Counted from the first letter of the stretch, positions 11,557 to 42,717 are shown. The stretch: 64,000 bases of DNA from Chiloscyllium plagiosum (GCF_004010195.1 NC_057749.1:18392488-18456487), one strand, 5' to 3'. Numbers and translations: made by a program. The notes: generated from the letters alone by a model not told the origin.

Positions 11557-11758
11557 AGTTGTGAGGTGCTGGAAAAGCACAGCAGGTCAGGCAGCATCTG
11601 AGGAGCAGGAGAATTGAGGTTTCGGGCAGTCCTGATGAAGGGCTTGTGCCCAAAATGTCGATTCTCCTGCTCCTCGGATGCTGCCTGACCTGCTGTGCTT
11701 TCCCAGCGCCACACTCTCTACTCTGATCTCCAGCATCTGCGGTCCTCACTTCCTACTG
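11557..11758 (+). mobile_element. Palindromic mini-Penelope element with central hammerhead relic
   Basis: Arm 11566-11628 is the reverse complement of 11647-11709; centre ctgatgaagggcttgtgcccaaaatgtc; imperfect flanking direct repeat gtgtgtca(ga)tgtgttc at 11540-11556 and 11759-11773. Confidence 0.85.
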
Positions 11759-12847
11759 GTGTGTCATGTGTTCCGAAGGGAAGAGATTAGGTGGGACTAT
11801 TTGGTAAGCCGTTTGACGAGCACTGTGCCTGGTGCTGGAGATTGATGGGCTTCAGCTTTCTATCTCTCTGTCAGTTAGCTTTTACTCCTGCTCTGGTTTT
11901 AATTCATTGTCTATTGCAGGGGCCTAGCAGCCTGTTGTGAACAGCTGTGACCCACTGCAGCACAGAGATTTATGCAGGATCATACATTACTCAAAGTGTA
12001 CACAGACTTTGTATGAGTGTGCTACTAAAGCTTTGGATTCAATATATCGAGTTGGCCACGGTCAAGGATCAGCACAGGGAAGACATTAATGATGGTTAGA
12101 AGCAGCACTGAGATTTTGACCATGGAAGCGATGGTCATGAGCCACAGGATCATTTGGTCTACGCAGTGTATTGCTGTGTATTGATTATGAATAATACTGG
12201 CCAATTTCCAGGAAGCTTCAGCAGTCTGCTTTTCACAGCAGGTCATTGAATGACTGAGAATATAATGAGATTTGCCTTCATTCCAAATCGGATTGAAGCA
12301 ATTTATTTGGAAAACATTGAATTTCTATCTGGCTTGGCTGGGTGCCAGTAGGGAGGTTAAAGCGACTTTATTTGAAAAATTAACACTACTAAGGTGTCAG
12401 TTATTTATTTAGATAGGTTCTAGGCACCAAGCTGTGCTGCAGCGTTTTTATTGTTAAATATACAGTAGTTGATTTTAGAACCTGTTTTATTGAGCTGGTC
12501 TTTCATTAACACTGGCCCTGGTGCTGTCATTGAGAAACAGGGGCTTCATGCATTTGCTGCTGATATAACACCCTGCAATGATTAATGACATTGCTGCAAA
12601 TTGCTACAGTCCACATCCCACACATCTCTGTGATCCTTCAGCCGCAGATGTTTTTATTAGATTGCTCAATGGCATGCAGTTCCTTTTAAAGGTCACAGTT
12701 GCATCCCACTATAGCACACAGGAGAGGTTTAGCATAGGAACATGCACTACTTACTGAGAGTATGTATGGTGAACCTGTCTTACATGACAGTGCACTGCTG
12801 TGACAGGTTAATGCGTTCAAACTGCTTTTCTTCCTGTCCATTGTGCA

Positions 12848-13020
12848 TATAGAATCAGTGATGTACAGCATGGAACAGACCCTTCGGTCTGACTCGTCTA
12901 TGCTGACCAGATATCCCAACCTAATCTACTCCCATTTGCCAGCATTAAATACTGTAATTGCACCAGACACCTCCACTTGCTCTGGCAGCTCATTCCTTAC
13001 ACGCCCCACCCTCTGTGTGA
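12848..13020 (-). mobile_element. CR1/HER1 3' tail fragment with internal deletion
   Basis: gatgtacagcatggaacagacccttcgg... is the reverse complement of the tail at 14420-14500. Confidence 0.75.
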
Positions 13021-13507
13021 CCTGGGAATTGTGCAGAGGAGATTTGTGACAATGGCTGAGGAGAGATTTAACTGAGGTGTACAAAATTGAGGATCCTGAA
13101 TAGGGTGGATAGAAAACACCAATTCAACAACCACGTCTCGATTCGGGAATCCCTGGTTAAAGACTATTCAGTTAAAGTTGTTGTTTTCAGGAATGATACC
13201 ACAACTTTAAGTGAGGCCTAATGCCTAAGATCTGGAACTCTGCTTTAAACTGTGGTAGAGATTGAAACCCTCATCATAGATACATAGTCCTGAGATCTGC
13301 CGTTGCAGTGCTTTGGAGCAAAAAGTGGAATGCGGGATTGGGATGGACAGATTTTGTTCACCCAGTCCAAACCTGATGGGTCAAATAGCCACTTTCTAGC
13401 CTGTACATTTCTTCGATTCCTTCTTGAACCTCCCAGTCTCTTCCTTTATGTTGCTTCTTAAATTGTATTGCTTTGATTGAGCTTTTGGTGACCTGTCCTA
13501 CATAATT

Positions 13508-14505
13508 GAGTTGGATGTGAATATAGGAGGTATGGTTAGTAGGTTTGCAAATAAGTGAGGTGTAGTGGACATCGAGGAAGGTTACCTCAGAGTACAATGT
13601 GATCTTGAACAGATGGGCCAATGGGCTGAGGAGTGGCAGATGGAGTTTAATTTAGATAAATGCGAGGTGCTGCATTTTCGAAAAGCAAATCAGGGTAGGA
13701 TTAATACCCTTAATTGTAAGGTCCTGGGGAGTGTTGCTAAACAAAGAGACCTTGGAGTGCAGATTCACAGTTTCTTGAAAGTGGAGTCATTGGTAGACAG
13801 GATAGTGAAGAAGGCTTGGCACGTTTCTCTGTAGCCGTTTCCCTGAGGTTACATTTGGAAAAATGGCATGCTGGTGTGGTGCTCACAGGTGGGCAATTCT
13901 TTGTTGGTCAGAGCATTGAGTATAGGGGTTGGGAGGTCACGTTGCAGCTGTACAGAATATTGGTCAGGCCACTTTTGGAATGCTGCATTCAATTCTGGTC
14001 TCCCTGCTCTATGAAGGATGTTATGAAACTTGAAAGGGTCCAGAAAAGGTTTACAGGGATGTTACCAGGGTCAGAGGGTTTGAGATATAGAGGCTGAACA
14101 GAGTGGGGCTCTTTTCCCAGCAGTTTCGGAGGCTGAGGGGTGACCTTCTAGAGTGTATAAAATCATGAGGGGCATGGATAGGGTGAATAGTCAGGGTATT
14201 TACCCCAGGGTAGGGGAATCCAAAATGAGAGGTCATAAGTTTAAGGTGAGAGGGGAAAGATTTAAAAGTGATATAAGGGACAACATTTTCACGTGTGTGT
14301 ATGGAATGAGCTGCCAGAGGAAGCGGTGGGGGCTTGTACAATTGCAACATTTAAGAGGCATCTGGATGGGTATATGAATGGGAGGGGTTTGGAGGGATAT
14401 GGGCCAAGTGCTGGCAAATGGAACTAGGTTAATGTAGAATATCTGGTCGGCATGGACGAGTTGGGTTGAAGGATCTGTTTCTGTGCTGTACATCTCTATG
14501 ACTGT
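13508..14505 (+). mobile_element. 5'-truncated CR1/HER1 LINE (RT C-terminus and 3' UTR)
   Basis: WAEEWQMEFNLDKCEVLHF, LYRILVRPLLE and RGHKFKV; tail ctgtacatctctatgact; collinear with 37160-38115. Confidence 0.93.
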
Positions 14506-14803
14506 CTCCAGTGTGATTCAGTGCTATGTCCTGACGATGCGCCTATGGATCATTTTATTGCAAGTTGTTTTATCAGGATTTCCTATTCTGAGTGAATTTT
14601 GCAGTAAGGCTCTTTGACCACTGTTTATCAGGCTACCTATGGCTTGTATTTTGCTATGTTCAAGGTGTCATATCAAAGAAAGCAGTCGATCATTGCACAT
14701 GACTGTTGCATGCACCTGAGATGTCTCTTCATAATTTCCGCGAATTGCATCTATATGTTTGACATGCTTGTTGGGATAGTGTCCACATCTATCCATTGTG
14801 TTT

Positions 14804-15303
14804 NNNNNNNNNNNNNNNNNNNNNNNNNNNNNNNNNNNNNNNNNNNNNNNNNNNNNNNNNNNNNNNNNNNNNNNNNNNNNNNNNNNNNNNNNNNNNNNNN
14901 NNNNNNNNNNNNNNNNNNNNNNNNNNNNNNNNNNNNNNNNNNNNNNNNNNNNNNNNNNNNNNNNNNNNNNNNNNNNNNNNNNNNNNNNNNNNNNNNNNNN
15001 NNNNNNNNNNNNNNNNNNNNNNNNNNNNNNNNNNNNNNNNNNNNNNNNNNNNNNNNNNNNNNNNNNNNNNNNNNNNNNNNNNNNNNNNNNNNNNNNNNNN
15101 NNNNNNNNNNNNNNNNNNNNNNNNNNNNNNNNNNNNNNNNNNNNNNNNNNNNNNNNNNNNNNNNNNNNNNNNNNNNNNNNNNNNNNNNNNNNNNNNNNNN
15201 NNNNNNNNNNNNNNNNNNNNNNNNNNNNNNNNNNNNNNNNNNNNNNNNNNNNNNNNNNNNNNNNNNNNNNNNNNNNNNNNNNNNNNNNNNNNNNNNNNNN
15301 NNN
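14804..15303. other. Assembly gap (N run)
   Basis: Run of n. Confidence 1.
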
Positions 15304-15445
15304 CCCAAGGAAACCTAAACATATAAAAGAAAGCAGGCTACACCATTAGTCGCTTCATCCGGAGGCTCACTGATGTTACCTAGAATGATGACAAAACGTC
15401 TGAAAATGAACTTTCTAGCTCAGTGAGCAAACTTACATCCAGTAC
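15304..15445 (+). mobile_element. Terminal fragment of a second Penelope-like lineage with degenerate hammerhead
   Basis: ctgatg-ttacctagaatgatgac-aaaacgtc at 15370-15400 resembles CUGAUGA/stem II/GAAAC-GUC, with flanks unlike the main family. Confidence 0.5.
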
Positions 15446-16054
15446 CTGGAGAAAAATATATGTTTGGGTATGATATTGTGGAAGGGAATATTTAAGAAAA
15501 TGGGACATGCCAGATGACTCAAAATATCCAGCCCATTAACTTGCTGTGTCCCTAAATTGGGATTGTGATGCCAGTGGTGGTCACAGGTTGGGGTCTGATC
15601 TTTGCTTTTACCAGTGATGGAAGTTTTCTGAGAGCTTGCATCATCTTTGTTTGTTTAAATCTTCTCACAGCTAGGATACAGAAGTAAATTGGGGTGGAGA
15701 CGAGCTTCAGTTATATAAACCAGAATTTTGACGTCTGGTTTACATTTGAGAAATTTCCAGACAGACCACTTAGATAGAAATCCACATGTTTTGTCCAAAA
15801 CCAATATACGCACGTTCATACCGCAAATGAATCGCTCAGTATTTTGACAGTTAATGCACCTAGGGGTTTCTAATATACGGCTGCATTCCAAGCCTTCAAA
15901 AGGCATTCCGAGTTAAAATCAAGTATTTGAGAACCTTCTAACTGTGTAAATAGGAAAAAAGGTTAAGTAGTGTTAGTCACGAGTTGGGCGAGTGGGTGAG
16001 AAATAATGTTTAACCTAAGTTCTGTGGTATTCCTCTGATATTTGTCCAGTATCC

Positions 16055-17350
16055 ACTACAGGCAGACTTGCAGGAACTGGAGAAGGCCACTCAATTCCTT
16101 AAGGCTGCTCCACCATTTTGTTAGATCATGGCTGATCTTAACCCAACCACATTCCTCTGCCTTAACTATGCATCCCTTAATCCCTTTACCGAGCAAAAGG
16201 TTATCCATCTCAATCTTGAAAGCTCCAATTGCCCCTAGAGGAAGCAGCGAAACCTCATAGCGAATTACAGGCAAATGAATTTTAGTGTGAGATGACTTGT
16301 TTTGATAGAGCAAGGAAAGGTATGGTTTTTAATAGAGTGCAGGAACATTGTCTGCATAGCATTGACAGTGGTGGGATAGTTTTGGAAAGACACGAATAAA
16401 CCATACAGTATCCTGGGGTTTCCAGATTGAGGTTCAGAATACAAAAGAAAGCAAGTTGTGACAAACATGTATGAAACTGGTTTGGCCACAAGTAGACCAT
16501 TCTTTAGGAAGGATACAAAGGTCTTTGAAAGAGTACCGATAAGATTCAGAAAAATGGCTCCAGGATGATGACCTTTAGTTATATGGATAGATTGGAGAAG
16601 CTGGGCTTTTCCTTTGGTGAAGAGATGATGTAGAAGAGATTTGATAGGATTTGAATAGATTGTGTTTAAAATTATCAGTCTTGACAAAGCACAGAGAGAG
16701 AAAGTAAATGCATTAAATTTAATTTGCCGCTTGTCTGCCTGTTCTACCAACCTGTGACATATTGAAGTTCTCCTGTATTCGCCTCAGAGTGTACAATACT
16801 TCCAAAGTTTGTGTCGTTGACAAATTTTTAAACTGTGCCCTGTTCATCCAAGTCATTAAGATTTGACCAGGAAAAGCAAGGATCCTAACACTATATCCCT
16901 GGGGAATGCGGCCATAAACTGCCTCCTAGTCTCCAAAGCATCTGGTCACCATCACTCTCTGATTCACGTCACGTAACTGATTTGGATCCATTCAGTTGCT
17001 GTCACCTTTGTTCCATGGGATACATTTTTACCAATGGATCTGTTGATTCATTTTATCAATGGTCTTTAAGAGGTTCATATACATTACAGCAACTGCATTA
17101 CTCTAATCAGCGCACCCTGTTGTGTCTTCAGAATACCCAAACACAAGTTGCCCATGACAAATCTGTGCTGACTCTTCCCCCAATAACTTGCAGTTGTCCA
17201 CGTGACAATAAATTTTGTTCAAGATTATAGTTTCTAATATCTTTCCGAACACTGCAGTGAACGTATTGGCCTGCAGTTTATCTTTACACCTTTTCCTAGA
17301 CAGGATTTGGCTCTTACAATTTTGCAATCTTCTGGCTCCACCCATGTATC
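16055..17350. mobile_element. Cluster of old CR1 fragments in both orientations
   Basis: Minus 3' UTR at 16055-16250; plus RT-tail-like segment at 16350-16700; minus RT segment at 16720-17350 (aatctgtgctgactc, acaagttgcccatgac). Confidence 0.6.
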
Positions 17351-18029
17351 CAAGGAGGACAGGAACTTTGAAAATGGGGCATTGGCCCATCGGGCTCACT
17401 CCGCCATTCAACATGATTGTTGCTAAGCCTCCATCTCAATGCCATATTCCAGTTCTTTTCTCGTATCCTTTGATATCTTTAGCTTCTAGAAATGTGTCTG
17501 TTTCCTTCTTATTCTGTGCCTTCACCTCCACAGCCTTCTGTGGTAGAGAATTCCGTAAGTTCACCACCATCTGAGTGAAGAAATGTCTCCTCATCTCAGT
17601 CCACATGGCTTAGTGTGTATGCTGAGGCCATAACCCCTTGTTCTGGAACCCACGGCTGGGGGAAACATGATCCCATGCATCCAGTCTGTCCAGCCCTGTC
17701 AAAAATTATGTATTTCAAAGAGATTCCTTCTTATTCTTTGAAACTCTCAATAATGTAAGCCTAGTTGACCCCATCTCTCCTTGTAAGAGAAACCTGCCAT
17801 CTCAGAACTCAGTCTGGTGAATCATTGCTGTACTCCCTCTATGGCACTTCTATGTTTTCGGCAGTTAGGAGATTAAAACTACACATGACCCTTCAGGTGT
17901 GGTTTCACCAAGGCTCAGTAAAGCTGCAGCAAGACTTCCTAGCTCTTATACTGAAACCCTCCTGCAAGGAAGGCGAACATACCATTTGACTCCCTAACTG
18001 CTTACTTTCTATGAGCAGTTTCCATGTCC

Positions 18030-18723
18030 GTGACTACCTGGTCAGGTCCACGACCCCCAACAACCCACCCTCCATCCTGGCACCTTTCCCTGCAGGAATT
18101 GCAAAACCTACGCCCACACCTCCTCCCTCACCTCCATCCAAGGCCCTAAAGGAGCCTTCCACATCCATCAAAGTTTTACCTGCACATCCACCAATATCAT
18201 TTATTGTATTCGTTGCTCCCGATGCGGTCTCCTCTACATTGGGGAGACTGGAAGCCTCCTAGCAGAGTGCTTTAGGGAACATCTCTGGGACATCCGCACC
18301 AATCAAGCACACCGCCCTGTGGCCCAACATTTCAACTCCCCCTCCCACTCTGCCGAGGATATGGAGGTCCTGGGCCTCCTCCGCCGTTCCCTCACCACCC
18401 GACGCCATGGAGGTCCTGGGCCTCATCTTCTGCCTTGGAACACTTCAACCCCAGGGCATCAATGTGGACTTCAACAGTTTCCTCATTTCCCCTCCCCCCA
18501 TCTCACCCCAGTTCCAAACTTCCAGCTCAGCACCATCCCCATGACTTGTCCTACCTGCCTATCTTTCTTTCCACCTATCCACTCCACCCTCCCCTCTGAC
18601 CTATCACCTTTTGCCCGAAACGTCGATTTTCCTGCTCCTCGGATGCTGCCTGAACTGCTGTGCTTTTCCAGCACCACTCTAATCCAGAATCTGGTTTCCA
18701 GCATCTGCAGTCATTGTTTTTAC
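18030..18723 (+). mobile_element. Penelope-like element 3' fragment (GIY-YIG endonuclease region and terminus)
   Basis: Frame reading FTCTSTNIIYCIRCSRCGLLYIGETG...FREHL and VAQHFNSPSH; flanking direct repeat ccatgtcc at 18022-18029 and 18724-18731. Confidence 0.9.
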
Positions 18724-19373
18724 CCATGTCCCTTTGTACATCAACCTTTTCCCGTGTATCACCATTTAAATAATAATCTGCCACTCTGTCCTTCCTACCA
18801 AAGCTTCACATTAATTGACTTTATACTGTGTTTGCCCACTCCCTCAACTTGATTAAATCACCCTGCAATATCTTTATGTCCTTCTTGCCACTCTCACTCC
18901 CATTAACATTTGTGTCTTCAGCAAACGTGGAAATATTACACTTGATTTCCCCCATCCAAAGCTTTCATAAATATTGTGAAGAGCTGAGGCCTTAGCGCTG
19001 ATTGCTGTGGTAACCCACCTTCCACTCCAAATAAAAAACACATTTTTTCCGATCTATTTCCTTTCTCAGTCCATGCCAGAATATTCGCACCAATCCCATG
19101 TGCTTCGATTTTACACAAAAACCTCTTGCGTTGAACTTTACCAAAAACTATCTGAAAATACAAATACACTTCATCCACTGGTTCTCTCTGATCTATTTTA
19201 CTCAGTACATCCTCAGAAAACTTGTCAGTTTACCAAACACACTTACCCTTCTGACAATCCATATTGATTTTGTGTCTCACTGTTGGTATTTTCTTAATGT
19301 CCTATTACGGCATCCTTTATGATAGACTCCAGATTTTTCCTTGCTGCTGATGTTAGACTAGCCAGTTTATAGT

Positions 19374-19575
19374 CAAAAAGTGGGGCACTGGAAGAACCCA
19401 GCAGGTCAGGCAGCATCCGAGGAACAGGCGATTCGACGTTTTGGGCATTCCTGATGAAGGCCTTATGCCTAAAACGTCGAATCTCCTGTATCTGGGATGC
19501 TGCCTGACCTGGGTTTTTCCAGTGCCACTCTTTTTGACTCTGATCTCCATCATCTGCAGTCTTCACTTTCTCTTT
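19374..19575 (+). mobile_element. Palindromic mini-Penelope element with central hammerhead relic
   Basis: Inverted arms around ctgatgaaggccttatgcctaaaacgtc (19451-19478); imperfect flanking repeat gccagtttatagt / gccagtccacagt. Confidence 0.85.
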
Positions 19576-20879
19576 GCCAGTCCACAGTACTGGTTTGCTT
19601 CCTTGTTTAAATAGCGACATTACTTTTGCCACCCTCCTGTCCACCAAGACCATTGTAGAATCTTGGGACATGACAACGGTGCACTCACTATTTCCATGAC
19701 CATCTTCTTTTGTTGGATGTAGATGTGGGTCCCAGGGAGTTTTTCCAGTCCCAATTTCTCTGGAATTTTTTTTTTGCTAATGCTAATTTCCTCCAGTTCC
19801 TCCTTCCAATAGACTCTAGTTTTCTAACAATTCTGGGGATTCCTCTTTAGATCTGGTACTGTCATTAATGTATTTTGTTAACCAAGGATGGGCCACTTGT
19901 ACTGTTGTAGCCCTTTGCCTGAAAGCAGTGTTCTTTAAACAGTAACTCTCCCTCGTGTCATGCCTTATCATGAAGTTACACAAAGGTTTTCCTTTGTTTA
20001 GGTAGTATTCAATTGGACCACTTCACTTTCTGTTCCAGTGATGAATTCTATCATGTTATGATTACTTTTCCCCAAAGGGCCTCTCTCAACGCGATTATTA
20101 ATTAACACCTTCTCATTGCACACAACCAAATCGAGGAGCGCCTGCTCATAAGATACTGCCTCCAACCCATTTTGTACACGTCAGGAATTCATCTGCCACA
20201 TGTTATTCCTAATGTGGTTTGCTCAGTCTGTATGTAGCTTATCAGCACCTTTGGGTGCTGTAGTAGTGTCCTTGTTACATGTATCTTGGGTTCCTACATA
20301 ATGCTACCCCTTGCCTTTTCTCTCCTGTTTGGACACATATAGTCAAATCCTAATGTTCTTTGCCCATTGTTGCTTCTTTGCTCTGATTGTATATCTAGAT
20401 TTCCGGTGCCACTACTATTTCTCACTGCTGTGCTGACTTAACACCCAACCACCCAACTTTCTTTTCCGCTTTGCCTATCCATCCCAAAGATTGAATAACC
20501 TTGAATGTTCAGTTCCCAGCTGTCTCTGTAATCATTATCATATTGTATCCATTTGCAACTGTTTGCATTGTTAATTCATCTATCTTATTGTGAATGCTTT
20601 TTGTATTCAGAAATAGTACATTTGCACCTGTGTATAATGGTCAAATCGACATGCCTTGCACTCTAGCCCTATTTGTTGCTGAGCTTTGTTTCTTCCGCTT
20701 TTTATCTTTGCTTTCTATTTCACTGTCTTTCATTTCCTTTTTTGTTTCTTCCACTTGGTTTCTCACCTCCCTGCTGCACTAGTTTAAACCCTCCATCGTT
20801 ATGCTAGTGAACACCTCCGTGAGAGTAACAGCCCTGGCCCTGCAACCAGCCCATCTTTTACCAGTCCCATCTTCCCTGG

Positions 20880-21010
20880 AATAAAACAACTGCAGATGCT
20901 GGAGATCTGAAATAACCAATAACAGAAATGGCTGAAGAAACTCTAGTCTGGCAGCATCTGTGGAGAGAAAGCAGAGTTAACTTTTTGAGTCCAGTGACCC
21001 GTCTTCAGAG
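20880..21010 (-). mobile_element. Short Penelope-type terminal element, older subfamily, with hammerhead relic
   Basis: actgcagatgctggagatctgaaa end; minus strand ctgaagac-gggtc-act-ggactc-aaaaagtt; relatives at 10480-10570 (+), 32320-32415 (+) and 47105-47205 (-). Confidence 0.6.
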
Positions 21011-21170
21011 CCTCCCCAGAGTCAGAGGAATGTCTGAATCCCTCTTTCCTATACAAAGCCTCCAGTTGGATGTTCATTTGGTTTGTTCTCCTATTTGTGG
21101 TTAGCAAATAGCACTAGGAGTAATCCTGTGAAGACTACTTTTGAGTTCCTGCCTTTTATTTCCTGTGTCC

Positions 21171-22494: not shown

Positions 22495-22815
22495 GATGTA
22501 GGCTAGAACAGGAGGCTGGAAGAACACAGCAAGCCAGGCAGCATCAGGAGGTGGAGAAGTTGACATTTCGGGTATAACCCTTCTTCAGGACTGGGGGTGG
22601 GGTGGAGTGGGTTGGGGGGTGAAATGGGGTAAAATGGTGAGATAGTGATGGGTGAACACAGGTGTTGGGTACAACCTGATTGGTCAATGGATGGAACGAA
22701 TCTGGTTGGTAGCTTGAAGGAAAGGTCAGTAGGAGGAATGGAAGGGAGGGGGAGGGGCTGGAAAGGGAGCTGGGTGATGTGTGGGAAGATTATTTGAAAT
22801 TGGAGAATTCAATGT
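22495..22815 (-). mobile_element. Penelope-like terminal fragment with hammerhead motif
   Basis: Collinear with 60930-61235; minus-strand core ctgaagaa-gggt-tat-accc-gaaatgtc at 22562-22588. Confidence 0.8.
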
Positions 22816-25419
22816 ATTATCCAATCTACAGCATATTTTCCCATAAACTTTATGCAGGAGGTTAAGTTTCAGTTTTACAGTTGCCCCGAAGCTGACTTAG
22901 CTTTAAGCAGGGGATTGGAAACTAAGGGGATTGGAAACTAACTGAATTGTAACACCAGCATCTGTGTCTTGAAATAAACCAGCATGTTTTGGGGGAAAGT
23001 GCCCTTTCATTAGTGCCAGCTATGACCAGGGAAAGTTAAAATGTTGCCATATTTGTCCCAGATGTTTGCAACATTAAACAATCACTACATTGTTTCTTGT
23101 ATTGACTTCCTCAAAGTTTCCAAAAAAAAACTTTGGATCTCTTTCAAGGGGACCTATAAGTGAAATGGCTGTCAGGTTTATACAGGCACCTGCTATCTTC
23201 AAGATGTACTGAAATGGCTGAGCATTCTTTGACAGTGCTGATGCTGTAGAATGGCCAGTATTCTTGTATTCACAATTAGTTGTTAAGTACAAATGCTTTA
23301 ATGGATTTGAAGCATTGTTAGCTGCTTGGGCTTTTTCCAGTACAATATTGAGTTTACTTTGAACAGTATACTCGATCAGTAGCTCAGATTCACAGTCATT
23401 GTGGTGCAGGAGCAGGAAATTTTACTCGTTTAATTCCTGCTGGCTCTGTGGAACCATCCAGATGGTTGATCTTATTATATTCCCAGAAACCCAAATATTT
23501 CCTTCTCTCAAGTATGTATCCAATTTCCCTTTTTAAGCCATCCAGTGCTCAAGTCTTTAAATCTGTGCTCTGTGTTTTTGTCTTATCAGCTAATGGAGGT
23601 TTATATTTATCAACCTGCCATAATCCTGTACACTCTTACCAAGGAGAGCAACTCCAGATTCACCAGCCTCAACCTGTAGCCAAAATGCTGATCCCATAAC
23701 CCATTCTAGTAAATCTGAGCAGCTCTGCTGAGAGTGGCCATACAATTAGTCTCCAGGTTCCAGGGAAGTATGTGAGGTATTATACACAATTAGACTTTAA
23801 ACTGGCTACTTAATTCCAAGATTGAATGGAAGTCTAAAGGCTAGACAGTTAGCACTTCTGCTTGCATACAAAGCCATGTGATTTATGTTATTGTGGAGCC
23901 TTGGACTTATGAGTGTGGAAGAATCAGCAGGAAACATTTTTGGATTGGTTGTAGGCTTTCCTTGTGTATCACTGAACCCCTCCAACTAAAGTTAGCAAGA
24001 ATTTTAACAGAGTGCAGAGAGAGAGAGGTGCAGCAAACTTCTTTGCAGAATGTGGGCGAGAGCTTTAATGGTCACATTAAAGAATGCTGTAATTAAAAGC
24101 TCTAATGAAATAAATCAAGTTTGTGAGAGTTTAACCAAGACTGGAAGATTCACCTAGCATTAGCCAGGTAGAGGAAACTCTGGGATAACCATCACTATAA
24201 AAGTCAGTTTGGTGCTGGGAGTCATCTGCCTGAAATACGACAGTGCAAGCTCTTGAAAGTTGAGAACCACTTTGGACAATGCAGTGTAGACTTAATGGAC
24301 AGAATAAGGTGTGGCTGTGGAGGCAACTTTTGGTTATTTTGAGTTTGAATCAAAAACAACTTGTGCCACGTATTGGGATGAATCTGTGTTCTCATTTTGT
24401 ATTGATGTTGATGGAGTAACCCTCTTTCCAAACTGTTTCTGTTGGTCCATTGTTCAAGCAGCTTGTACTGCTTTCTTCGGTTGTATTTTCAAACTCAGTT
24501 TCTGATGGAGACTTACTGGTTGAACTCTGACATCTTGTCCAAAGGATTGGGGGGTCAGCAATGTGTTTTGGCTGTGGACTGACATCCTGTCTGATTTGAT
24601 AGACAAGAGGATCATAGATTATGTGTGATGGGCTAGAAGGCAGAGTTGAGCCCACAATTGGGTCAGCTTTGATATTACCGAATGTCAGAGCAAACCTGAA
24701 GCATTGATTGGCCTTCCCTCACCAGTAAGTCCTATAATGATTTCTTGATGCATGCATGCACTTTACTGGTTAACATTGGACTGTGGTCAGAGATGGTTAC
24801 TTCCCAGGAAATATCATAGCTAAGATCTGCAGGCATTTTGTAACAAAACAAAATAACATTGAAAACAGACCTGGCCTGTCTTGCTGGGTAATTAGACCAG
24901 CAGTTACCATGCCACATTTTTCTGAAGAATTCCTTAGATTGTGCTGTTAAAGAACCTGAACAGGGAGCACTCTTTCAGCATAGCAACCCTCCCAGGATTA
25001 TGCAAACATGGAACTCGCCTGTTTGTATTTTAAAAGACTTGCATTGTGCTCGAAATAGTGTAAGGGGAATGTGTATTTTACTGAATGACTGACTGTGAAA
25101 GCTCAGTATTAGCACCACACACTTGAGAAGCTCTGATTGCTTTTCAAATATTTTCTGATTTGGAGGTGCTGGTGTTGGACTGGGGTGTACAAAGTTAAAA
25201 ATCACATGACACCAGGTTGTTTCCAAATATAGTTGGACTATAAACTGGTATTGTGTGATTTTTAACCAAATATTTTCTGATGGTCATTCAATGGAATGCT
25301 TTCTCTTAAACAGTGAGCGCAGCTGAATGTTTGAAATAATTGTGTTCCCCACATCATAAAGATATTACCCTGATACTTTAATTGGTTAAGATAGTGAGCC
25401 TTTCTAAGTGGAAAGACTT

Positions 25420-26275: not shown

Positions 26276-26813
26276 TCTCAAGTTTGAGTTAGCTGATTCT
26301 GTTTGAATACCAAACCAGGGTTCCTGTCCCAATTTTGCAAGTCTAATATGCAGGGACCTCTGGTGAGGACTGAATTAGATGTGATTGTGCTCTTTGCTAC
26401 AGTTAAATATTTTGCTAACATCTCTCAATCATACTTGGCGACTTGAGTCATTTTGAATGGTGCCCAGCCTGGAGCTGATGGCTGCAGTGTGGGTGGGAAA
26501 ATTTTGAAGTCACTAATTATGTCTGCTTGCTAAGACATGAAGCTTGTAACATTATTTTGCAACATGAAGGATTTTTTTAATCTTGCTTTGTACTCATCAG
26601 GATGAGAGATGTTAGAACTACAGAGTTAAGCCCTCTGGTCCTAGACTCTCCCAGAAGGGGAAGCAGCCTTTCCACAAATACCCTGTCAACACCCCAAAGA
26701 ATTTTATACTGACACCAGGGTGTCAGTAAGGTTGCCTCTTGTTCTTCTATATTCCAGTGGGTCCAGGTGCAATCTACCCAACCTTTCCATGAGACAGCCC
26801 TTTCCTACTTGTT

Positions 26814-27177
26814 TCCTCATTTCCCCTTTCCCCCACCTCACCCCAGCACCAACCTTCCAGCTCAGCACTGTCCTCATGACCTGTCCTACCTGCCTATCTT
26901 CCTTTCCACCTATCCTCTCTACCCTCCTCTCTGACCTATCACCTTCATCTCCACCCCCATTCACCCATTGTACTCTTATGCTACTTTCTCCCCATTACCA
27001 CCCCCTCTTATTTATCTCTCCACTCTGCAGGCACCTTGCCTCTAATCCTGATGAATGGCTTTTGCCCGAAACGTCGATTTTCCTGCTCCTCAGATGCTGC
27101 CTGACCAGCTGTGCTTTTCCAGCACCACTCTAATCTAGACTCTGGTTACCAGCATCTACAGCCCTTGTTTTTACCTA
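26814..27177 (+). mobile_element. Penelope-like terminal (pLTR) insertion with 15-bp TSD
   Basis: Collinear with 18478-18723; perfect direct repeat cctttcctacttgtt at 26799-26813 and 27178-27192. Confidence 0.9.
27044..27079 (+). ncRNA. Minimal hammerhead ribozyme motif, nearly intact, sense to the host gene
   Basis: AATC-CTGATGA-A-TGGC-TTTT-GCCC-GAAAC-GTC-GATT: 4-bp helix I, full core, palindromic ACGT stem III; one mismatch at the base of stem II. Confidence 0.75.
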
Positions 27178-28189
27178 CCTTTCCTACTTGTTATCAGTGA
27201 AGTGAACATGCCGTGGAGGGCCTCCAGTGTTAGCATACCTTTCCTTGGATAAGGGACCCAGAAACTATAGAATTCTTGTAGTGGTCTGACTAGTGTCTCA
27301 TGTAGTTTGAGTAATATCTCCCAACTTTTACACTCCATTCCATTTGAAGTAAACACTGACTTTCTGTTTGCCTTCTCTATTATCCACTGTCTTTGGATGC
27401 TAGCTTTGTGTAACTCATGGTTGGGGACTTCCAAATCCCTCGGTTCTGTAGCTTTCTGCAGTCTTTCTCCATTGAAATAATATATAGTTCTGACATTGTT
27501 ATCTGATTGATAGTCATAGAGGTGTACAGCATGGAAACAGACCCTTCGGTTCAACCCGTCCATGCCGACCAGATATCCCAACCCAGTCAAAAGGAATCCA
27601 ATTGAAGAGGCTCGTTTCTCCCACAGCTGCAGCATTTTTATAACCATTGATTGAAGCATTCACTCTTCTAATCTCCCTATCATGTTATTTCCAGAGTTGG
27701 AGTCAGGAGTGTCCTAGAATTTCAATTCCTAAAGACTGCACAACAATGCAGGATGTAAATAACTTTACGTCTGGTTTTGAGAGTCTGAATTGGCTGCCTC
27801 AGGGTGGGCGGAGGGTGTTGGGGAAGGCAGAGAACGAGTGATGTAGCTCATTCTTCAAATGTTTCTGTAAGCATCTTGATGGGGGGGGGGGGCTTGATTT
27901 TGATTGAAACTATTCCACAGTGGAAGGCCAGTTGTGAATGTGAGTAAATCTTTCTAATTTCTGCATTGAGAATTCAGTGCCTTAATGTTGTAGCTGCAAG
28001 GTCATGGATTATGAAACTGTTCTCGTGTTTTTATATTTATTTCTCACCAGGGTGCTCCTGATATATGTAGGTATTTTGTTTGCAGCTTGTTGAAGCCCTG
28101 GAATCTAAGCTGGCATGACAATAGCATTTAAAATATGTATGAAGGAGTGATTACTCATGATTAATGCTTGTTCAACTTTTGTTTCCCAG

Positions 28190-28415
28190 CAGATGGACTC
28201 CCCTGCCTCCACACCGGCTCCCCCACCCCTTCATCTTCTGCCTCCCGTCAGTAGTGGCGTTGCTTCCCCTGTGGAGCAGATCATGGTCCGCACCCGTTCC
28301 ATTGCAGTCAATACCTGTGACGTTGGACTCGCAACAGAGCCTGAATGCCTAGGGCCCTGTGAACCAGGGACAAGTGTCAATCTCGAAGGGATTGTCTGGC
28401 AGGAAACGGAGGATG
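28190..28415 (+). CDS. ZNF609: Internal coding exon of zinc finger protein 609 (ZNF608/ZNF609/brakeless family)
   Basis: Acceptor ttttgtttcccag, donor G|gtaaga; 226 nt, phase 0 to phase 1; encodes [85 protein letters not shown] and WQETEDG match my recollection of ZNF609 better than ZNF608 (WHETEEG). Confidence 0.9.
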
Positions 28416-28589
28416 GTAAGAAAATAACAATTTATGAGATTCCTTGGTATTTAGAGTTGTTATTGCATTGAAAGAACCTTTAATTTTCATTGAGGAAGTC
28501 ATGCCCTTTTGGAGGGTGGTGCAAACGTCATGCCTTCTGCACCATAACAGTTCTCTTATTCTGTACTGACTGAACCTGGAATATATGAC

Positions 28590-31510
28590 GTATGGACAAG
28601 GAACAGGAGTAGGCCACTTGGTCCTTCGATTCTGCTCTGCCATTCAATAAAATCACAGCTGATATGATTTTAACTTCAACTCTGCATACTGCAGATAATC
28701 TTGGGCACCAAAAATCTATCAATCTCTGCCTTTAAATATTTTCAAAGATTGTGCAGCCATTGCTTTTTGAGGAAGGGAATTCCAAAGACACTCAGTCCTT
28801 AGATTTTTTTCCCCACTCATGTATGACCTAAATGGGCAGTCCCTTATTTTTAAACAATGACCGCCTAGTTCTAGCTTCTCCCACAAGAGGTGAAAATCTT
28901 TCCGTATCCACACAGTCCTTTCAGGATCTTGTGTGTTTCAAGTAAGTCACCTTTGACTCTATAAACGCTCAGGGATACAAGTCTATGCTCCATAGTCTTT
29001 CCTCATAAGGAAGTTGGTTTATTCCAGGTATTAATCTAGGAAACCTTCTCTGAAGTGCTTTCAACACATTAACATTATTCGGTAAGTACCGTACTAGGTA
29101 CTGTACCTAATACTCCAGATGTGGTCTGATGAGTGCCCTGTGTAACTGACGCATAATCTTTGTATTTTTACAATCAGTTTCCCTCACAATGAAACATGAT
29201 ATTCGATTTGCTTCCCTGACTACTTGCTTTCCTGCACACAAACCAATAGCAATTCACACGCCAGAACACCCAGATTCCTGCACCTCAGAGCTCTAAACTC
29301 TCTCACGATTTAAATAGTATGCTTTTTTATCCCTTCTGCCAAAATTGACAATTTTATACTTTCCGATATTATACCCAATTTTCCAGAACTTTGCCCACTT
29401 GCTTAACCTTCCCAATTCCCTTTGTAGTCTCCTTATCTCCTCTTTGTAGCTCACTTTCCTACCTATGTTTGCTTCATCAGCAAATTTCCCTTCATCCAAA
29501 TCATTTTTATGAATTATAAAGTGTTGAGGCCCCAAAATTGATAAACCACTTGTTCCATCCTGCCAGTCTGAAGAAGGCTCCCATTCCTATTCTCTGCTTT
29601 GTGTTAGCCAGAAAGCATCTTTCTGTGCCAATATGTTACCACTATTAATCTGGGGACCTGGTTTGACACCTTTTATGACAGATCATGGAATTCGAATTGA
29701 ACTTTTAAAAAAAATATGGAATTAAAAGTTTAATGCTGACCATAAAACTATTGTTGATTGTCAGGAAAAACCCATCTTGGAAAAGGAAATTGTCATCTTT
29801 ACCTGGTGTGACTGACATGTGACTCCAGTCCCAAATATTGGTGGTTGACTCTCGACCCCTCTGAATAATTAGGGATGGGCATGAATGCTGTCCTAACCAG
29901 TGATGCCCACATCCTGTGAATTAAGTTTTATAAAGTTACCCCACCATGTGCTTTTATTCTCTGCAATGACCTTTGATGAGACACCTTCTCAAATGCAATC
30001 TGGAAATCGAAATACAATACAGCCTTTGGTTAATCTCTGTCTATTTCAAAGAACTCTAATAAATTTCTGAATACCTTAAACTTATCCAAGTGCCCTATTA
30101 TAACATCTTTAATAATAGCACCTAACACTTTCGCTGTGCCAGATGTTACGCCAACTGGCCTCTGGTTTCCTTTTTTTTGAATAAAGGAGTTAGTTATTTT
30201 CGAATCTAAAGGAGTATTCCTGAATCTAATGAATTTAGGAAAATTTAAAGCTAACACATCAACTATCTCACAATCTACTTCTTAGGACCTTAGAGTGAAA
30301 TTGTCAGTCTTGCTGTTCTACCAGTTCACTCCGTACTACTTCCCATGTGATTGTAATTTTTGTGGGTACCTCCATCCCTTTCGATTCCTGATTTACGGCT
30401 ATTTCTAGCATGCTACTTGTGTCCTCTGTAGCAAAGACTGATGCAAAATACCACACCATTCACCTGCCATCTTTTTACCCACCATTACTATTCCCCAGCT
30501 CATTTTCAATAGACCCAACACTCACTTTTTTGAAGTTCATTTCTTTTTTAAATATCTAATGAAACCTTTCCTATCTGATTTGGTATTTTTGGTGAACTTC
30601 CTCTTACATTTTAATTTTTCTCTTCCTATTGCTCTTTTTAATTCTTTGCTCCTTTTTATGTTCTGTCCAGTCACCTAACTTGTCAAGTACCTTCATACGT
30701 GTCCTCTGTGATCTGTTTGAGATTGATGCTATCTATGACTTTTTTTAGTTAATCACAGATGACAAGTCTTCCATTAATATGTTTATTATCTGTTAGACTG
30801 TATCTGTTCGGTGCATTGTGGAGTATTCTGTTGACTGTTTGCCCATGTGTCTCTATAAAATAGTCTTGGACCCACACTTCTCTCCCTTAAACTGTGTAAA
30901 ATTTAATCATATTATGGTCGCTGTTACCCAGGGATGCTTTCATTGTGAGGTCACCAATTAATCCTACCTCATTGATCAAAACCAGGTCTCGTATAACTTT
31001 TTCTGGTTGGTGCCATAACATGTTAGCCAAAGAAATTGTACCACAAACATTCGATGAGTTCCTCATCTAGACTTCTTGATCCCTTCTGATTTTCCAGTCT
31101 ATATGTATGTTAGAATCCCCTATGATAAATACTGTCCTCTCTTCTGACAAGCTCCCATTATTTCCATCCAACCACGTGGTTTTTGTTCAGGTACCTGTAC
31201 ACAGATCTCACAAGTGACCACCTGACTTTGTCATTCATCATCTCTACTCAGATTACACCTGTATCCTAGTTTCCTGAATGTAGGTCAACCCTCTCTATTG
31301 TGCAAAAATCATTTTTAATTAAAAGAGCTACTCAACCTTTCCTAGCCTCCTGTCCTTCTTAAATATCTCAGACTGTTAAATTTTAGGTTCCAAACTAGGT
31401 CATCCTGCAGCCATGTCTTAGTAATGGCCACTTAGATAATATTTATTTATCTCAATTTACGTGACTATTTCATCTGTTTTGTTTGGAATGATACATGCAT
31501 TCAAATGGAG
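28590..31510 (-). mobile_element. Old CR1 LINE (3' UTR to endonuclease region), decayed
   Basis: 3' UTR ggaacaggagtaggccact at the left; minus ORFs NDLDEGKFADEANIGRKVS, CLWNSLPQKAM and GNQRPVGVTS. Confidence 0.8.
29640..29930 (+). mobile_element. SINE of a second family nested in CR1
   Basis: Shares aggaaa...tacctgg...tgtgactccag...ggttgactct with 39795-40065; ends in the attagggatgggc...gcccacatcctgtgaat tail. Confidence 0.65.
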
Positions 31511-32479
31511 GTCTGGCAGGCACTGAAGTCAAGCAGGTTGTGGCCTGTAGACCTTTTAAAATAAAACTGTGAAGCATTGCGTCATGAAACATTTAGCAGC
31601 TTGATGTCCAGAGCTTGTCTGATCAATGTGTAAAATACAGATGTGTGCACTGTGCCCTTCTGGTTGTTATATTTGGGACATTGCCCATTATTAAAGTGGC
31701 CATTTCAAATATGGCCTTCAAAAAGCCAGGCGCATCCATCTTGGATTTCATAAAGTCAGGTAAACTCGTATTTATATTTCTTGTTTTAAATCCTCTACCT
31801 AAAGATTCTGACTGTTCCTTCAGTTGAAGCAACGGAGTTGAGCCTTGTTTTATGATGTGTGTCCTCAGCAGTGTACATAGTTTCTAATTGACGTGTTGAG
31901 ACATGTTATTACTCAACTCTGCAGAAGGTGGGCCTCTCCTAGCTCTCTCACTACCACTGTGCCACAAAAACCACATGCACGTGTTGTAAGGTGAGATGTT
32001 GCAGGAGCACGTGAGAGTTGCGTGTTTATGGCAAACCAGCGAAATGTAGGAAGTGTTAGTATGTGGCATTGCATGAATGTGGTTCAGATGGAGCTTGAAC
32101 CTTGCTCCTTAACCAGCTGGTGCAAAAGGATAAGCTTTAGTGTAAATCACTTGATGATGGTCAAAGTTAAAACCTATGTAGTCAGTGTGTTGTTTTTGGC
32201 AGGTGAAGAAAGAACTTGCAGTCTTTTTTTACAGCCATATAATTACTTTGTTGAAATGTAGTGACTGTTATGTGAAAAACACGTGAAGGGAGATCCCACT
32301 CAAAATATGGTAATAACAGTTTCAGTGAAAAGTCATCATCCTCAAACGTTAACTCTGGGTTCCTTGGCAGATGCTGCTTGACCTGCTGAGTACTTACAGC
32401 AATTTTAGTTTTTATTGAGGGTGGTAATCTGTTTTTGTGATGTTAGTTCACATATCTACTTATGTCCATCCTTATACAC

Positions 32480-33080
32480 TCACGACTGCGTGGCCAAATG
32501 CTGACCCATGTCCATTTGCAAGTTTGTTGATGACACCACTGTTGTATGCAGGATCTCCAACAATGACAGAATATTGGAAGGAGATTGAGCAGCATGGTGG
32601 AAAGACAAATATCTCCATCAATGTCAGCAAACTGAAGGAGGAGCTGGTCATTGACTTCAGGAAGTGGAGTGAGTGCATGCCCCTGTCTGCATCAATGGTG
32701 CTTTGGTGAACATAGTTGAGAGTGCCTAGTTGCTGGGAGTGGCGATCTGTCCTGGTTGACCCATGTCGACATGGCAGTCAAGAAAGCACCACAATGTTTT
32801 TACTCCCTCAGGGGCTTAAGGAAATTCGGCATGTCCACAAAGACACTTAGCAATTTTTGTAGATGCATCACGGAAAGCATCCAGTCTGGATGCATTACAT
32901 GATATAGAACTGCCTTTCCCAAGATCAAAAGAAACTACAGAGAATCGTGAACACAGCCCAATCCACTACACAACTGGTCTTCCATCAATTGACTCCAAAT
33001 ACACTTTCCACTGCCTTGGGAAAGCAATCAACATAATCAAAGAACCCTCCCCTCTCTTCCACCCTGAATTGTTGGGCAGG
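32480..33080 (+). mobile_element. Rex1/Babar-type LINE RT C-terminal fragment
   Basis: KFVDDTTVVCRISNND, INVSKLKEELVIDFRK and CITESIQSGCIT are Rex1-like motifs. Confidence 0.75.
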
Positions 33081-33955
33081 TCCCTTGTAAATCTTTCCCC
33101 TCTCACCTTAAACCTATGCCCTCTAATTTTGGACTCCCCTATCCTGGGGAAAAAGTCCTGGGCTATTCACCTTATCTGTACCCCTTATGATTTTATAAAC
33201 CTCTAAAAGGTCACTCCTCAGCTTTATACACTCCAAGGAAAAATGTCTCAGCCTATCCAGCCTAATTTTATAACTCAAATCTTCCAGTCTCACTAACTTC
33301 CTTGTAAATCTTTTTTGCATCCTTTCCAGTTTAATAGCATCCTTCCTATAGCACGGTGACCAGAATTGTACGCACTGCTCTAAATGTATCTTCACCAATG
33401 TCTTGTACAGCTGTTCGAACCCAGTTTTGATTCCAGCCTTGGGCAACTGTCTGTGTGGAGTTTGCACTTTCTCCCCGTGTCTGCGTGGGTTTTCTCCGGG
33501 TGCTTCGGTTTCCTCCTACAATCCAAAGATGTGCAGGTCAGGTGAATTGGCCATGCTAAATTGCCCATAGTGTTAGGGATATGTAGGTTAGGTGCATTAG
33601 TCAGGGGTAAATGTAGAGTAATAGGGTAGGGGAATGGATTTAGGAGGGTTACTAAGGATTCTAAGTATTCTAGGTAACGTGACATCCCCACTCCTGTACT
33701 CAGTGCTCTGATCAATAAAGGCAAGCATGCTAAACGCCTCCTTCACCCCTTGTCTGCCTGTGGTGCCACTTTCAAGGAACTGTGTACCAAGACCCCTAGG
33801 ACTGTCTGTTCAACAACACACTCCAGGGCCCCACCATTAACATGTAAATTCTGTCCTGGTTTGACTTAACAAAATGCAACACCTTGCATTTATCCGAATT
33901 AAACACTATTTGTCATTCCTTGCCCCACTGGCCCAGTTGATGAAGATGCCCTTGT
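33081..33955 (-). mobile_element. CR1/HER1 3' fragment interrupted by a SINE
   Basis: Minus ORF QLYKTLVKIHLEQCVQFWSPCYRKDAIKLERMQKRFTR. Confidence 0.85.
33412..33655 (+). mobile_element. HE1-type V-SINE, truncated
   Basis: ctgtctgtgtggagtttgcac...ggccatgctaaattgccc core. Confidence 0.85.
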
Positions 33956-34424
33956 CCTATTGTAAAGATGTCGAAAGTCAAAGATAGTATTGTGTCTAGT
34001 ATATATTTCTTTCCTCTCAATGTGGTTCTCAAAAAGAGATGTTGCATAACAGTGGAATTGCTACTCTTATTGAAAGTTGTCTGATTTCAGACTGCTTAGC
34101 AGGATGGTGAGGCACAGGCTGATGCTGGCTGAGTTGACCTGTTGAGATAGAGTGGTGAGTGGCTGTCATATTCATTTATGGATAATAGGAAATTTTGCTT
34201 TACTTTAATGGCACATATTAATACAGTGGTTCTGCCTGAATTGGCGTATTGATTCCATTTCATACAGAATACGATGAAGACACTAAACAGGATGCAGAAA
34301 ATGTGAAGGCATTATATAGGGTGCAGCAGGGAATGGTTCATGTTATGAGGGATTTCATTGTAACATGGCAGTACTGAGTGTGACAGTTTGCTACATCCCA
34401 TCATATCATCTACTTTGCTGACTG

Positions 34425-34790
34425 TGCTGTGAGAGTTATGAAGGTAGATTGGCTTTTTCCTGCAGAAGAGAACATTGAGAGGAAATTTGATGGAGGTCTT
34501 TAAAGTCTTGAGGGTCTGGGCAGAGTAGATAGAGAGAGACAGTTCCAGTGGTGAAAGTTTTGAGAATACGAGGGCACAGATCTAAGAGAATTAGCAGAAG
34601 AAATAGCAGGGCATGAGGCAACTTATTTTACACAATGAATGATTCGAGTTTGGAATGCACCGTGGTGGTGGAGGCAGATTCAACTTAGGCTTTCGAAAGG
34701 AAATTGAATCATTTCTTTAAAAAGGGAAAAAATTGTATTAGTGGGGAAAAGACAGAGTTGAAATGATGGTGGCTTTGGGCCGAATGGAAT
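34425..34790 (+). mobile_element. Old CR1 3' end
   Basis: agttatgaaggtagattgg...acgagggcacaga...tggaatgcac. Confidence 0.6.
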
Positions 34791-35087
34791 GGCGTCAACA
34801 TTATAAATAAACAAATTGTTGGGAGAGACAGCTCCTTAATTTTATGACGTGACATTAGATATTTCCAGCTAATATATATCTCAGAGGCAGTAATGAGTTA
34901 TGAGTTTTCTCTTTGTAATATTCAGGATTGTAAGCAAACTAAAGTAGAATTTATCTCTCCATTAATGGATATTGCAGCTTTAGTTCCAGTTGTTACTTGA
35001 CTGTTATATAGCGAGTAGAAAGATGTTCCAGTTTTGGATTTGTGACTCATGGAGGTTGGTCCTAATCTGATTAAATGCTGTTGGATA

Positions 35088-35310
35088 GAGTTTGCACATT
35101 CTCCCCGTTTCTGCGTGGGTTTCCTCCGGGTGCTCCAGTTTCCTCCCTCAATCCAAAGATGTGCAGGTCAGGTGAATTGGCCATGCTAAATTGCCCATAG
35201 TGTTAGGTGCATTAGTCAGAGGAGGGTGGGTTGCTGTTCAAAAGGTCAGTGTGGACTTGTTGGGCTGAAGGGACTGTTTCCACACTGTGGGGAATCTAAC
35301 CTAATCTAAT
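35088..35310 (+). mobile_element. HE1-type V-SINE, 5' truncated
   Basis: V core and (ctaat)n tail. Confidence 0.88.
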
Positions 35311-36010
35311 CAAGATGGTTTCTCAATTTCCCTCTGACTATTAGGGGGTCTACAATACAATCCCAATAAGGTGATCATCTCTTTCTTATTTCTCAGTTCC
35401 ACCCAAATAACTTCCCTGGATGTATTTCCAGGAATATCCTCCCTCAGTACAGCACTAATGCTATCCCCCTCCTCTCTTGCCTCCCTTTCTATCCTTCCTG
35501 TAGCATTTGTATCCTGGAATATTAAGCTGCCAGACCTGCCCATCTCTGAGTCATGTTTCTGTAATTGCTATGTCATTCCAGTCCCATGTTCCTTACCATG
35601 TCCTGAATTCATCTGCCTTCCCTGTTCAGCCTCTTGCATTGAAGTAAATGTAGCTTTATTTATCAGTCCTACCTTGCTCACTCTAGGAAAATGAGGACTG
35701 CAAATGCTGGAGATCAGACTTGTAGAGTGTGGTGCTGGAAGAGCGCAGCTGGTCAGGCAGCATCTGAGGAGCAGGAGAGGCAATGTTTTGAGCAAACCTG
35801 ATGAAGAGCTTATGCTCGAAATGTCAACTCTCCTGCTCCTCAGCTGCTGCCTGACCGGCTGTGATTTTCCAGCACCACACTCTTCAACTACCTGTTCTCT
35901 GCTTTGTTCCAGCCTACCCTAATTGTTTGGCTCGCTCCTTTTCTCAACTGTACCAATCTCAGATTGATCTCCTTCTTCACTATTTCCCTGGGTCCAACCC
36001 CACCCTCCCC
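35311..36010 (-). mobile_element. Inverted CR1 endonuclease segment (probable 5' inversion of the element at 36030-38115)
   Basis: Minus ORF ...SREVIWVELRNKKEMITLLGLYCRPPNSQREIEK is an APE-endonuclease motif; abuts the plus-strand ORF2. Confidence 0.8.
35686..35887 (+). mobile_element. Palindromic mini-Penelope element with central hammerhead
   Basis: Inverted arms around ctgatgaa-gagc-ttat-gctc-gaaatgtc (35798-35825); imperfect flanking repeat ctaccttgctcact / ctacctgttctct. Confidence 0.85.
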
Positions 36011-42412: not shown

Positions 42413-42665
42413 TCCACACTGACCGCAGTAACAGCTCCCCTCCCGTCTGCACTGACCCCAGTAACAGCTCCCCTCTCATCTGCACTGACCCCAGTAACAG
42501 CTCCCCTCCCGTCTGCACTGACCCCAGTAACAGCTCCACTCCCGTTTGCTCTGACCCCAGTAACAGCTCCTCCCGTCTGCACTGACCCCAGTAACAGCTC
42601 CCCTTCCGTCTGCACTGACCCCAGTAACAGCTCCCCTCCCGTCTGCACTGACCCTGGTAACATCT
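42413..42665. repeat. 33-bp minisatellite, about 8 copies
   Basis: Unit ctgcactgaccccagtaacagctcccctcccgt read directly. Confidence 0.95.
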
Positions 42666-42717
42666 ATCCTTCACTGTGTACTGAACCCTTTACAGTCACA
42701 TTGACTTTTCACTGACT

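Follow-up and report, generated by a model that had tools for sequence, protein, structure and literature searches.

A 64,000-nt stretch of the genome of the shark Chiloscyllium plagiosum (GCF_004010195.1, NC_057749.1:18392488-18456487; below, the window) contains three palindromic units of about 200 bp, designated A, B, and C, each of which is a head-to-head pair of ends from Penelope-like elements (PLEs). A sequence-only reading of this DNA had reported three palindromic mini-elements, and inverted-repeat units were found at all three sites; their boundaries, set in register across copies, were corrected to 11557-11757 (A), 19371-19572 (B), and 35685-35889 (C). The inverted and direct arms lie at 11557-11628 and 11627-11757 in unit A, at 19371-19448 and 19446-19572 in unit B, where both arms carry the marks of a distinct subfamily, and at 35685-35794 and 35793-35889 in unit C. 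The inverted-repeat arms (68 nt at 88% in A, 47 + 38 nt at 89/84% in B, and 75 nt at 84% in C) are far above chance, and the fold of unit B, at −124.8 kcal/mol (z = −14.5), was equaled in stability by 0 of 200 shuffles. None of the three units contains an open reading frame (ORF).

The units share one junction, as the sequence-only reading had proposed in placing a common fold-back point at a hammerhead ribozyme. Counting from C3 of the hammerhead core CTGATGA, the inverted arm terminates at CA, 5 nt ahead of C3, in all three units, and, read in the sense direction, it starts at +14/+15, within the stem II loop. The direct arms start at about −5 and overlap the inverted arm by CA in A and C and by CAT in B. 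Each junction, together with a decayed minimal hammerhead motif, is found on the plus strand, at 11627-11659 in A (GAAA lost), 19446-19478 in B (GAAA lost, 4-bp stem I retained), and 35793-35825 in C (GAGC/GCTC stem II, stem I lost), and the centre bases differ among all three. Since native ends (three tested) offer 73 to 178 overlaps of at least 3 bases, the common offset is not a chance result.

Two bases at this point, GT in A, TT in B, and AA in C, had been taken for a spacer between the arms, a reading that needed correction. At the same position, nonpalindromic copies carry the native 5′ strand of stem I before the core (CATTC at 2128− and 49857−, TAATC at 27048+, and CAGTC at 22588− and 61010−), and the bases in question pair with the post-cleavage strand over 4 bp in A (one of them a wobble) and 4 bp in B, with no pairing in C. 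The 2-nt element is therefore best read, on these alignments, as the ribozyme's own stem I strand, with arms that overlap by 2 to 3 bases. That a nontemplated 2-nt linker is the rule was rejected, since the native stem I accounts for both A and B, though perhaps not for C.

One feature that the sequence-only reading had not contained is a tail on one arm of each unit. One arm ends at a common ..ACT point, while its partner extends 33 to 35 nt beyond it, by 35 nt in A (11723-11757, plus strand), about 33 nt in B (19540-19572, plus strand), and 33 nt in C (35685-35717, minus strand). The tail of A and B is confined to the arm with the core. Unit C carries it on the arm devoid of CTGATGA, the core-bearing arm being tail-less, so that the centre of C is flipped relative to the tail.

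The ribozyme itself is intact in none of the three units. A and B read AAAA instead of GAAA, whereas C retains GAAA and has lost stem I and the ACGT palindrome; hence the full set of type I minimal hammerhead features (CUGANGA, GAAA, stems I and II, and palindromic helix III) is not kept in any of them. The motif is recognizable nonetheless, and it is better preserved at 27048+ and 2128−. Rfam gave no hammerhead family anywhere in the window at the gathering threshold, and none at E ≤ 10 in two short stretches. Unit B scored 45 bits against a plant microRNA (miRNA) model with a threshold of 70, a match to hairpin shape alone, and a label of miRNA precursor was rejected for such matches as subthreshold hairpin artifacts. 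The proposal that the hairpin would sequester the GAAAC-GUC half of the ribozyme stands as a predicted fold, in copies that are decayed and mismatched. Cleavage by the hammerhead was also rejected as the cause of the junction, as the cut falls about 28 nt after C3 and the junction 5 nt before it.

Two further observations concern the ribozyme in related copies. For 11627-11664, 19446-19483, 27043-27080, and 22556-22593, stem I of the common form contains a T-T mismatch; three variants have each lost it through a single change of their own, and in a fourth another Watson-Crick pair occupies that place, a pattern that suggests selection on the ribozyme in the parent subfamilies. At 22588-22600 and 61010-61022 (both minus strand, one subfamily), a pyrimidine run and CAG directly precede stem I and resemble a 3′ splice site.

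The arms could be traced to a coding element. Termini related to arm A (82 to 86%) follow the broken ends of GIY-YIG ORFs at 18034-18489, 2320-2577, and 50076-50415, and PLE ends are dense in the window, with 16 matches of a shared box motif, plus 2 unrelated matches. A broken PLE 3′ fragment at 18034-18724 (plus strand) joins the end of a GIY-YIG endonuclease ORF to the same terminal repeat, and an internal deletion has removed its hammerhead core as far as the loop of stem II. The best matches of the PLE ORF fragments were shark proteins, the top ones for 18034-18489 being from Chiloscyllium, and a relative, P0008, gave both RVT_1 and GIY-YIG matches. A CX2-5CxxC linker, which marks Neptune/Nematis elements (PMC8557442), precedes the GIY-YIG core; it is intact in 61630-62076, P0001, and P0008 and decayed in 18034-18489, and by this linker the ORF fragments appear to be of the Neptune/Nematis type. 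No PLE reverse transcriptase domain was found in the window. Judged by sequence, the arms of A, B, and C are ends of endonuclease-bearing (EN+) PLEs, each unit showing an inverted 5′-truncated copy and a one-sided tail. These findings supported the link to Penelope and the common origin of the two arms, both suggested earlier. As a separate observation, the internal deletion of about 115 bases in the ORF-bearing fragment stops at 18608-18612, within the loop of stem II and at the spot from which the inverted arms start, and one aligned contig showed a similar skip, from 26943 to 27059.

Flanking duplications were assessed by an anchored test against 600 random sites. Unit A is flanked by 11540-11556 and its partner 11759-11773 (both plus strand), which match in 15 of 17 columns (P = 0.003). 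The candidate for unit B, 19359-19371/19574-19586, matched in 9 of 13 columns and was not significant (P = 0.12), and that for unit C, 35670-35684/35889-35903, matched in 12 of 16 columns and was marginal (P = 0.06). Thus, the claim that each copy has its own duplication of 13 to 17 bp held for A; among the three units only this duplication is established, and B and C are compatible with decayed duplications. At six solo ends no duplication stood out above background (scores of 6 to 8), and their 5′ limits were not used.

Two other head-to-head units were found in the window. The first, at 60892-62348, is a 1.46-kb long-armed PLE insertion of another subfamily, which has its junction at 61538/61539 within the endonuclease ORF, 220 unpaired bases between the arms at the junction, a tail on the left arm only, and a perfect 15-bp duplication (60874-60888/62349-62363; P = 0.002). 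The second, a 107-bp fold-back at 25160-25266, is unrelated in sequence and has no hammerhead core; it carries an extension of about 33 nt on one arm between perfect 15-bp duplications (25145-25159/25267-25281), and its PLE origin is inferred from anatomy alone. Overall, a one-sided tail, with one arm 33 to 36 nt longer, was present in each of the 5 such head-to-head units found in the window, the shared junction in 3 of 5, and a clear 15- to 17-bp duplication in 3 of 5. A plain 5′-truncated PLE end, at 26816-27177 (plus strand), retains native sequence upstream of the core, a tail, and a 15-bp duplication (P = 0.002).

The size of the units and their terminal inverted repeats recall a miniature inverted-repeat transposable element (MITE) of the DNA-transposon type, and the density of PLE ends in the window means that neighbors occur, so that two independent insertions might be juxtaposed by chance. 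We regard both explanations as highly improbable. A MITE has symmetric ends and a short fixed duplication, whereas the ends here are tail asymmetric and the duplications of the head-to-head units are long and mutually unrelated in sequence. Moreover, the arms are ends of retroelements coding for GIY-YIG, and the offset is identical three times.

We then asked whether the units were made anew or amplified from existing ones, by comparing the six arms of A, B, and C and scoring shared derived non-CpG changes over all 15 pairings. Pairing by locus, the outcome of the arm-clustering check that had been proposed, was the best of the 15 with 10 shared derived changes (the next best had 8), mostly through B, whose arms group at 96/93 tree support. 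Descent from a single master, in which left arms would resemble left arms around a common centre, does not agree with this result, while several masters that rebuild both arms would still fit. Both arms of C carry the GCTC variant, as had been observed; that they derive from one template does not follow, because a common subfamily mark need not come from one molecule.

Contigs and RNA reads from four of 24 runs were aligned to the nonpalindromic copy at 26790-27200, which contains 26816-27177. The contigs aligned numbered 95,002 (run X1), 82,148, and 112,410 in three organisms, and 3,153 RNA reads from a polyA single-cell run aligned in both orientations, as passive intronic transcription of the family would give. 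In the consensus of loose ends, the stem II variant of C appeared in 368 contigs (X1) and the end variant of B in 289 contigs (X9). The marks of B and C thus appear to be common subfamily variants, and one junction would sit on different subfamilies. Six of the 15 joints listed were opposite-strand joints, one side of which always fell at 27046-27069 while the partners varied over 27081-27114; these joints do not resolve the breakpoints, because repeats interrupt the contigs, alignments are clipped wherever the template has a private mismatch, and the count of joints is incomplete. A 13-fold step in depth at 27042-27055 in X1 was not taken as proof of a 5′ limit, confounded as it is by subfamilies whose upstream sequence differs. 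A>G changes, as editing by ADAR would leave, were seen at 19 places, versus 47 for T>C and 69 for C>T (X21), in data in which paralogous reads swamp the signal. Pattern scans for more copies gave 0 matches in viral contigs (two scans) and 0 in genome contigs, and the 5 matches in metagenome contigs, none similar to the window, were judged to be chance.

These data bear on the possibility of an amplified nonautonomous family, in which palindromic masters are transcribed, for example from introns, and re-inserted by the PLE protein; both arms would be rebuilt from the sense arm in each cycle, and the two cDNAs, through their long complementarity, would pass on the junction. Such a family would account for an offset that is identical in all three units with this kind of terminus, despite tens to hundreds of equal overlaps; the terminus is extremely abundant, with RNA in both orientations, and nonautonomous hammerhead-bearing PLE derivatives (retrozymes) exist. 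Set against this, the three units differ in subfamily marks and centres, the same anatomy arises with other junctions, A and B keep stem I pairing though the ribozyme could not fold in hairpin RNA, and the reverse transcriptase would have to load on and read a duplex of roughly 70 bp. We consider this explanation unlikely. The sequence-only reading had offered either an undescribed MITE-looking family or a recurring event during Penelope reverse transcription, and a recurring event fits better, because the arms pair by locus, subfamily marks differ, the centre occurs in both orientations, and other junctions exist.

The particular event put forward there, a template switch at the ribozyme hairpin, was not supported in its simple snap-back form, and an intramolecular snap-back was rejected as the cause of the site. 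It amounts to self-priming, in which a single cDNA (or an antisense template) would bend back at the hammerhead and serve as its own template, the endonuclease then resolving the hairpin, and it is close to the proposal made for rotifer elements in PMC3846280, where palindromes at inverted junctions are so read. It would explain arms from one template, and the centre of A and B can form a small imperfect hairpin. However, a cDNA ending at −5 is not predicted, from DNA energies, to pair at +14/+16; the snap-back favored at the end of the cDNA is that of stem II (in 2 of 3 native ends P = 0.96, for ends at +8, and in the third 0.93, at +9), which is not the register observed. Unit C, in which the copied arm alone has a tail, would be difficult to produce from a single cDNA and would need an extra cut-and-trim step, and the unit at 61 kb has 220 unpaired bases between its arms. 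For these reasons, self-priming seems to us quite improbable.

Instead, we consider it likely that each unit arose de novo during its insertion, when two cDNAs, primed from the two target strands, were joined close to a favored 5′ limit immediately upstream of the hammerhead; each would be a dead-on-arrival insertion of an endonuclease-bearing PLE. In this scheme, the PLE protein would nick both target strands about 13 to 17 bp apart, and the stagger would therefore yield the duplication. Both DNA ends would prime cDNA on sense RNA, one from an outer and one from an inner start site bounding the tail, and the products would therefore be one tailed and one tail-less arm. The cDNAs would be short, many templates or cDNAs stopping about 5 nt upstream of the hammerhead core; one cDNA end would pair via 2 to 3 bases with the other cDNA in the stem II hairpin loop, and with surplus trimmed and gaps filled, a head-to-head pair with a fixed offset would result. 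Either cDNA may supply the centre, which would give rise to both the A/B form and the flipped C form.

The steps of this scheme differ in their footing. Two-strand cutting with extension, and the pair of start sites around the tail, are taken by analogy from the lizard (Anolis) element Poseidon, for which both target strands were cut and extended in vitro and two internal reverse transcription start sites bound the tail (Frangieh et al. 2024, PMC11167929), whereas the joining step and the cause of the stop are inferred. A transcript start or a splice boundary at −5 would be a guess, and a reasonable one, because an intron end in D. virilis maps to the 5′ end of helix I (PMC4209133). The strongest microhomology was rejected as the cause of the site, as a 5-base alternative exists upstream in 49857−. 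The two window units that share this anatomy but join elsewhere (at 61538/61539 within the ORF, and without a core at 25 kb) argue for formation at insertion, as does the stem I pairing of A and B, which there would be no reason to retain in a lineage of permanent hairpins.

Several points weigh against formation from two cDNAs. Locus pairing is carried mostly by B (shared changes: B, 7; C, 3; A, 0), and 5 of 6 inner branches of the arm tree are open, with only the pair from B supported. Arms paired by locus, in both orientations, would likewise be expected if two primers copied a palindromic template. The junction is common to three units only, the duplications of B and C fall short of significance, and the 2- to 3-base overlap, one of 73 to 178 such pairs, does not itself explain the site. 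Among the aligned contigs, 5 of the 6 listed opposite-strand joints end beside private mismatches of the template, and the exact joint of A, B, and C is not among the 15 listed, with 173 further joints outside the list. Finally, the in vitro work concerned Poseidon, an element of another clade, and its main text does not address inverted products (PMC11167929).

In LINE-1 elements (long interspersed nuclear elements, LINEs), twin priming generates two cDNAs from both target strands, which are joined through microhomology to give an inversion within one insertion. The L1 cDNAs copy different parts of the RNA, whereas in the window units the same end is copied, and the outcome is an inverted repeat.

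The architecture of the units resembles that published for EN+ PLEs (PMC3846280, PMC8557442) in its head-to-head pair of pseudo-long terminal repeats (pLTRs), short overlap or palindrome at the junction, and tail at one end. Palindromes at junctions and solo pLTRs have been described (Arkhipova et al. 2013, PMC3846280), and in the same work an inverted pLTR, 37 bp shorter than its direct partner, has a 15-bp overlap with it, and one inverted pLTR bears a 31-bp tail. The PLE tail is reported as a 30- to 40-bp extension at one end and the target duplication as variable (Craig et al. 2021, PMC8557442). A, B, and C differ in consisting of two ends only (~200 bp) with no ORF inside, and the clear duplications of the window units are 15 to 17 bp versus 8 to 10 bp in the rotifer (PMC3846280). 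An offset that recurs across subfamilies and a centre in two orientations do not appear in the passages of PMC3846280 and PMC8557442 drawn on here.

Poseidon has a hammerhead in its pLTR, cleavage by which is unnecessary for insertion (PMC11167929); it lacks the CX2-5CxxC linker that the ORF fragments of the window have, and the main text of that study sets out no model of how inverted products, or a fixed 5′ limit, would arise. Minimal metazoan PLE hammerheads occur mostly in solo truncated copies, with some opposite-strand pairs 100 to 700 bp apart (Cervera and De la Pena 2014, PMC4209133). They share with the motifs studied here CTGANGA..GAAA, an extra base before stem II, a 4-bp stem I, and a palindromic helix III, but each member of those pairs has a motif, whereas in the window units only one arm does, the arms abut, and stem II measures 4 bp; that paper does not contain the word "shark". 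Non-LTR retrozymes are short, noncoding, PLE pLTR-derived elements with a type I hammerhead (Li et al. 2026, bioRxiv 10.64898/2026.07.22.740005). They are tandems arranged head to tail, in which two or more successive units hold complete motifs, while the window units are head to head with at most one decayed motif. In the article literature searched, mostly at the level of article listings, we found nothing on the shark units described here, on a fixed −5 junction, on a flipped centre, or on twin priming by PLEs.

The units lie probably within introns flanking an exon of a ZNF609-like shark gene at 28193-28417 (plus strand; 95% covered, 96 to 99% identity to shark and ray ZNF609-like proteins), a placement made because this is the sole exon detected in the window. 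A 1,500-residue ZNF609-like protein searched against the 64 kb gave no second exon, with two gaps of N that might conceal exons; the lone exon implies large introns on either side. Elsewhere in the window, short solo ends of a further hammerhead-bearing lineage, at 20889-21008, 47110-47200 (minus strand), and 32325-32420 (plus strand), seem to start near the core, although no duplications that would fix their limits were found. Broken LINE-type reverse transcriptase fragments with RVT_1 matches lie at 2559-3356 and 36876-37412, the first abutting a hammerhead-bearing PLE piece at 2044-2577. An inverted pair at 52987-53484, with 149-nt arms at 71%, comes from a different abundant repeat that elsewhere follows LINE-type reverse transcriptase fragments, and it is not a PLE end. 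Minisatellite arrays at 54556-55500 and 42417-42722, with units of roughly 30 bp, yield long spurious ORFs, and a near-perfect local direct duplication of about 125 bp (98%) is present at 45841-46088.

Taken together, the units represent a miniature of a known PLE insertion pattern and a small addition to it, their anatomy having been published already (PMC3846280, PMC8557442, PMC11167929). How PLEs make inverted ends is described as unresolved (PMC8557442), and these minimal units bring the problem down to ~200 bp. The flipped centre and the fixed offset serve as mechanistic clues: a tail on either arm relative to the centre favors two cDNAs over one self-primed cDNA, and the breakpoint recurring 5 nt upstream of the hammerhead core is the second clue. 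Very many copies are present in shark genomes, and in annotation such units are to be treated as PLE ends, not as MITEs or miRNA precursors. There is an outside chance that they are self-propagating noncoding palindromic retroposons, in which hairpins read from introns are re-inserted by the PLE protein with the junction inherited, the arms matched, and the centre flippable. If so, they would be MITE look-alikes that move through RNA, seeding very many intronic double-stranded RNA hairpins in shark transcriptomes.

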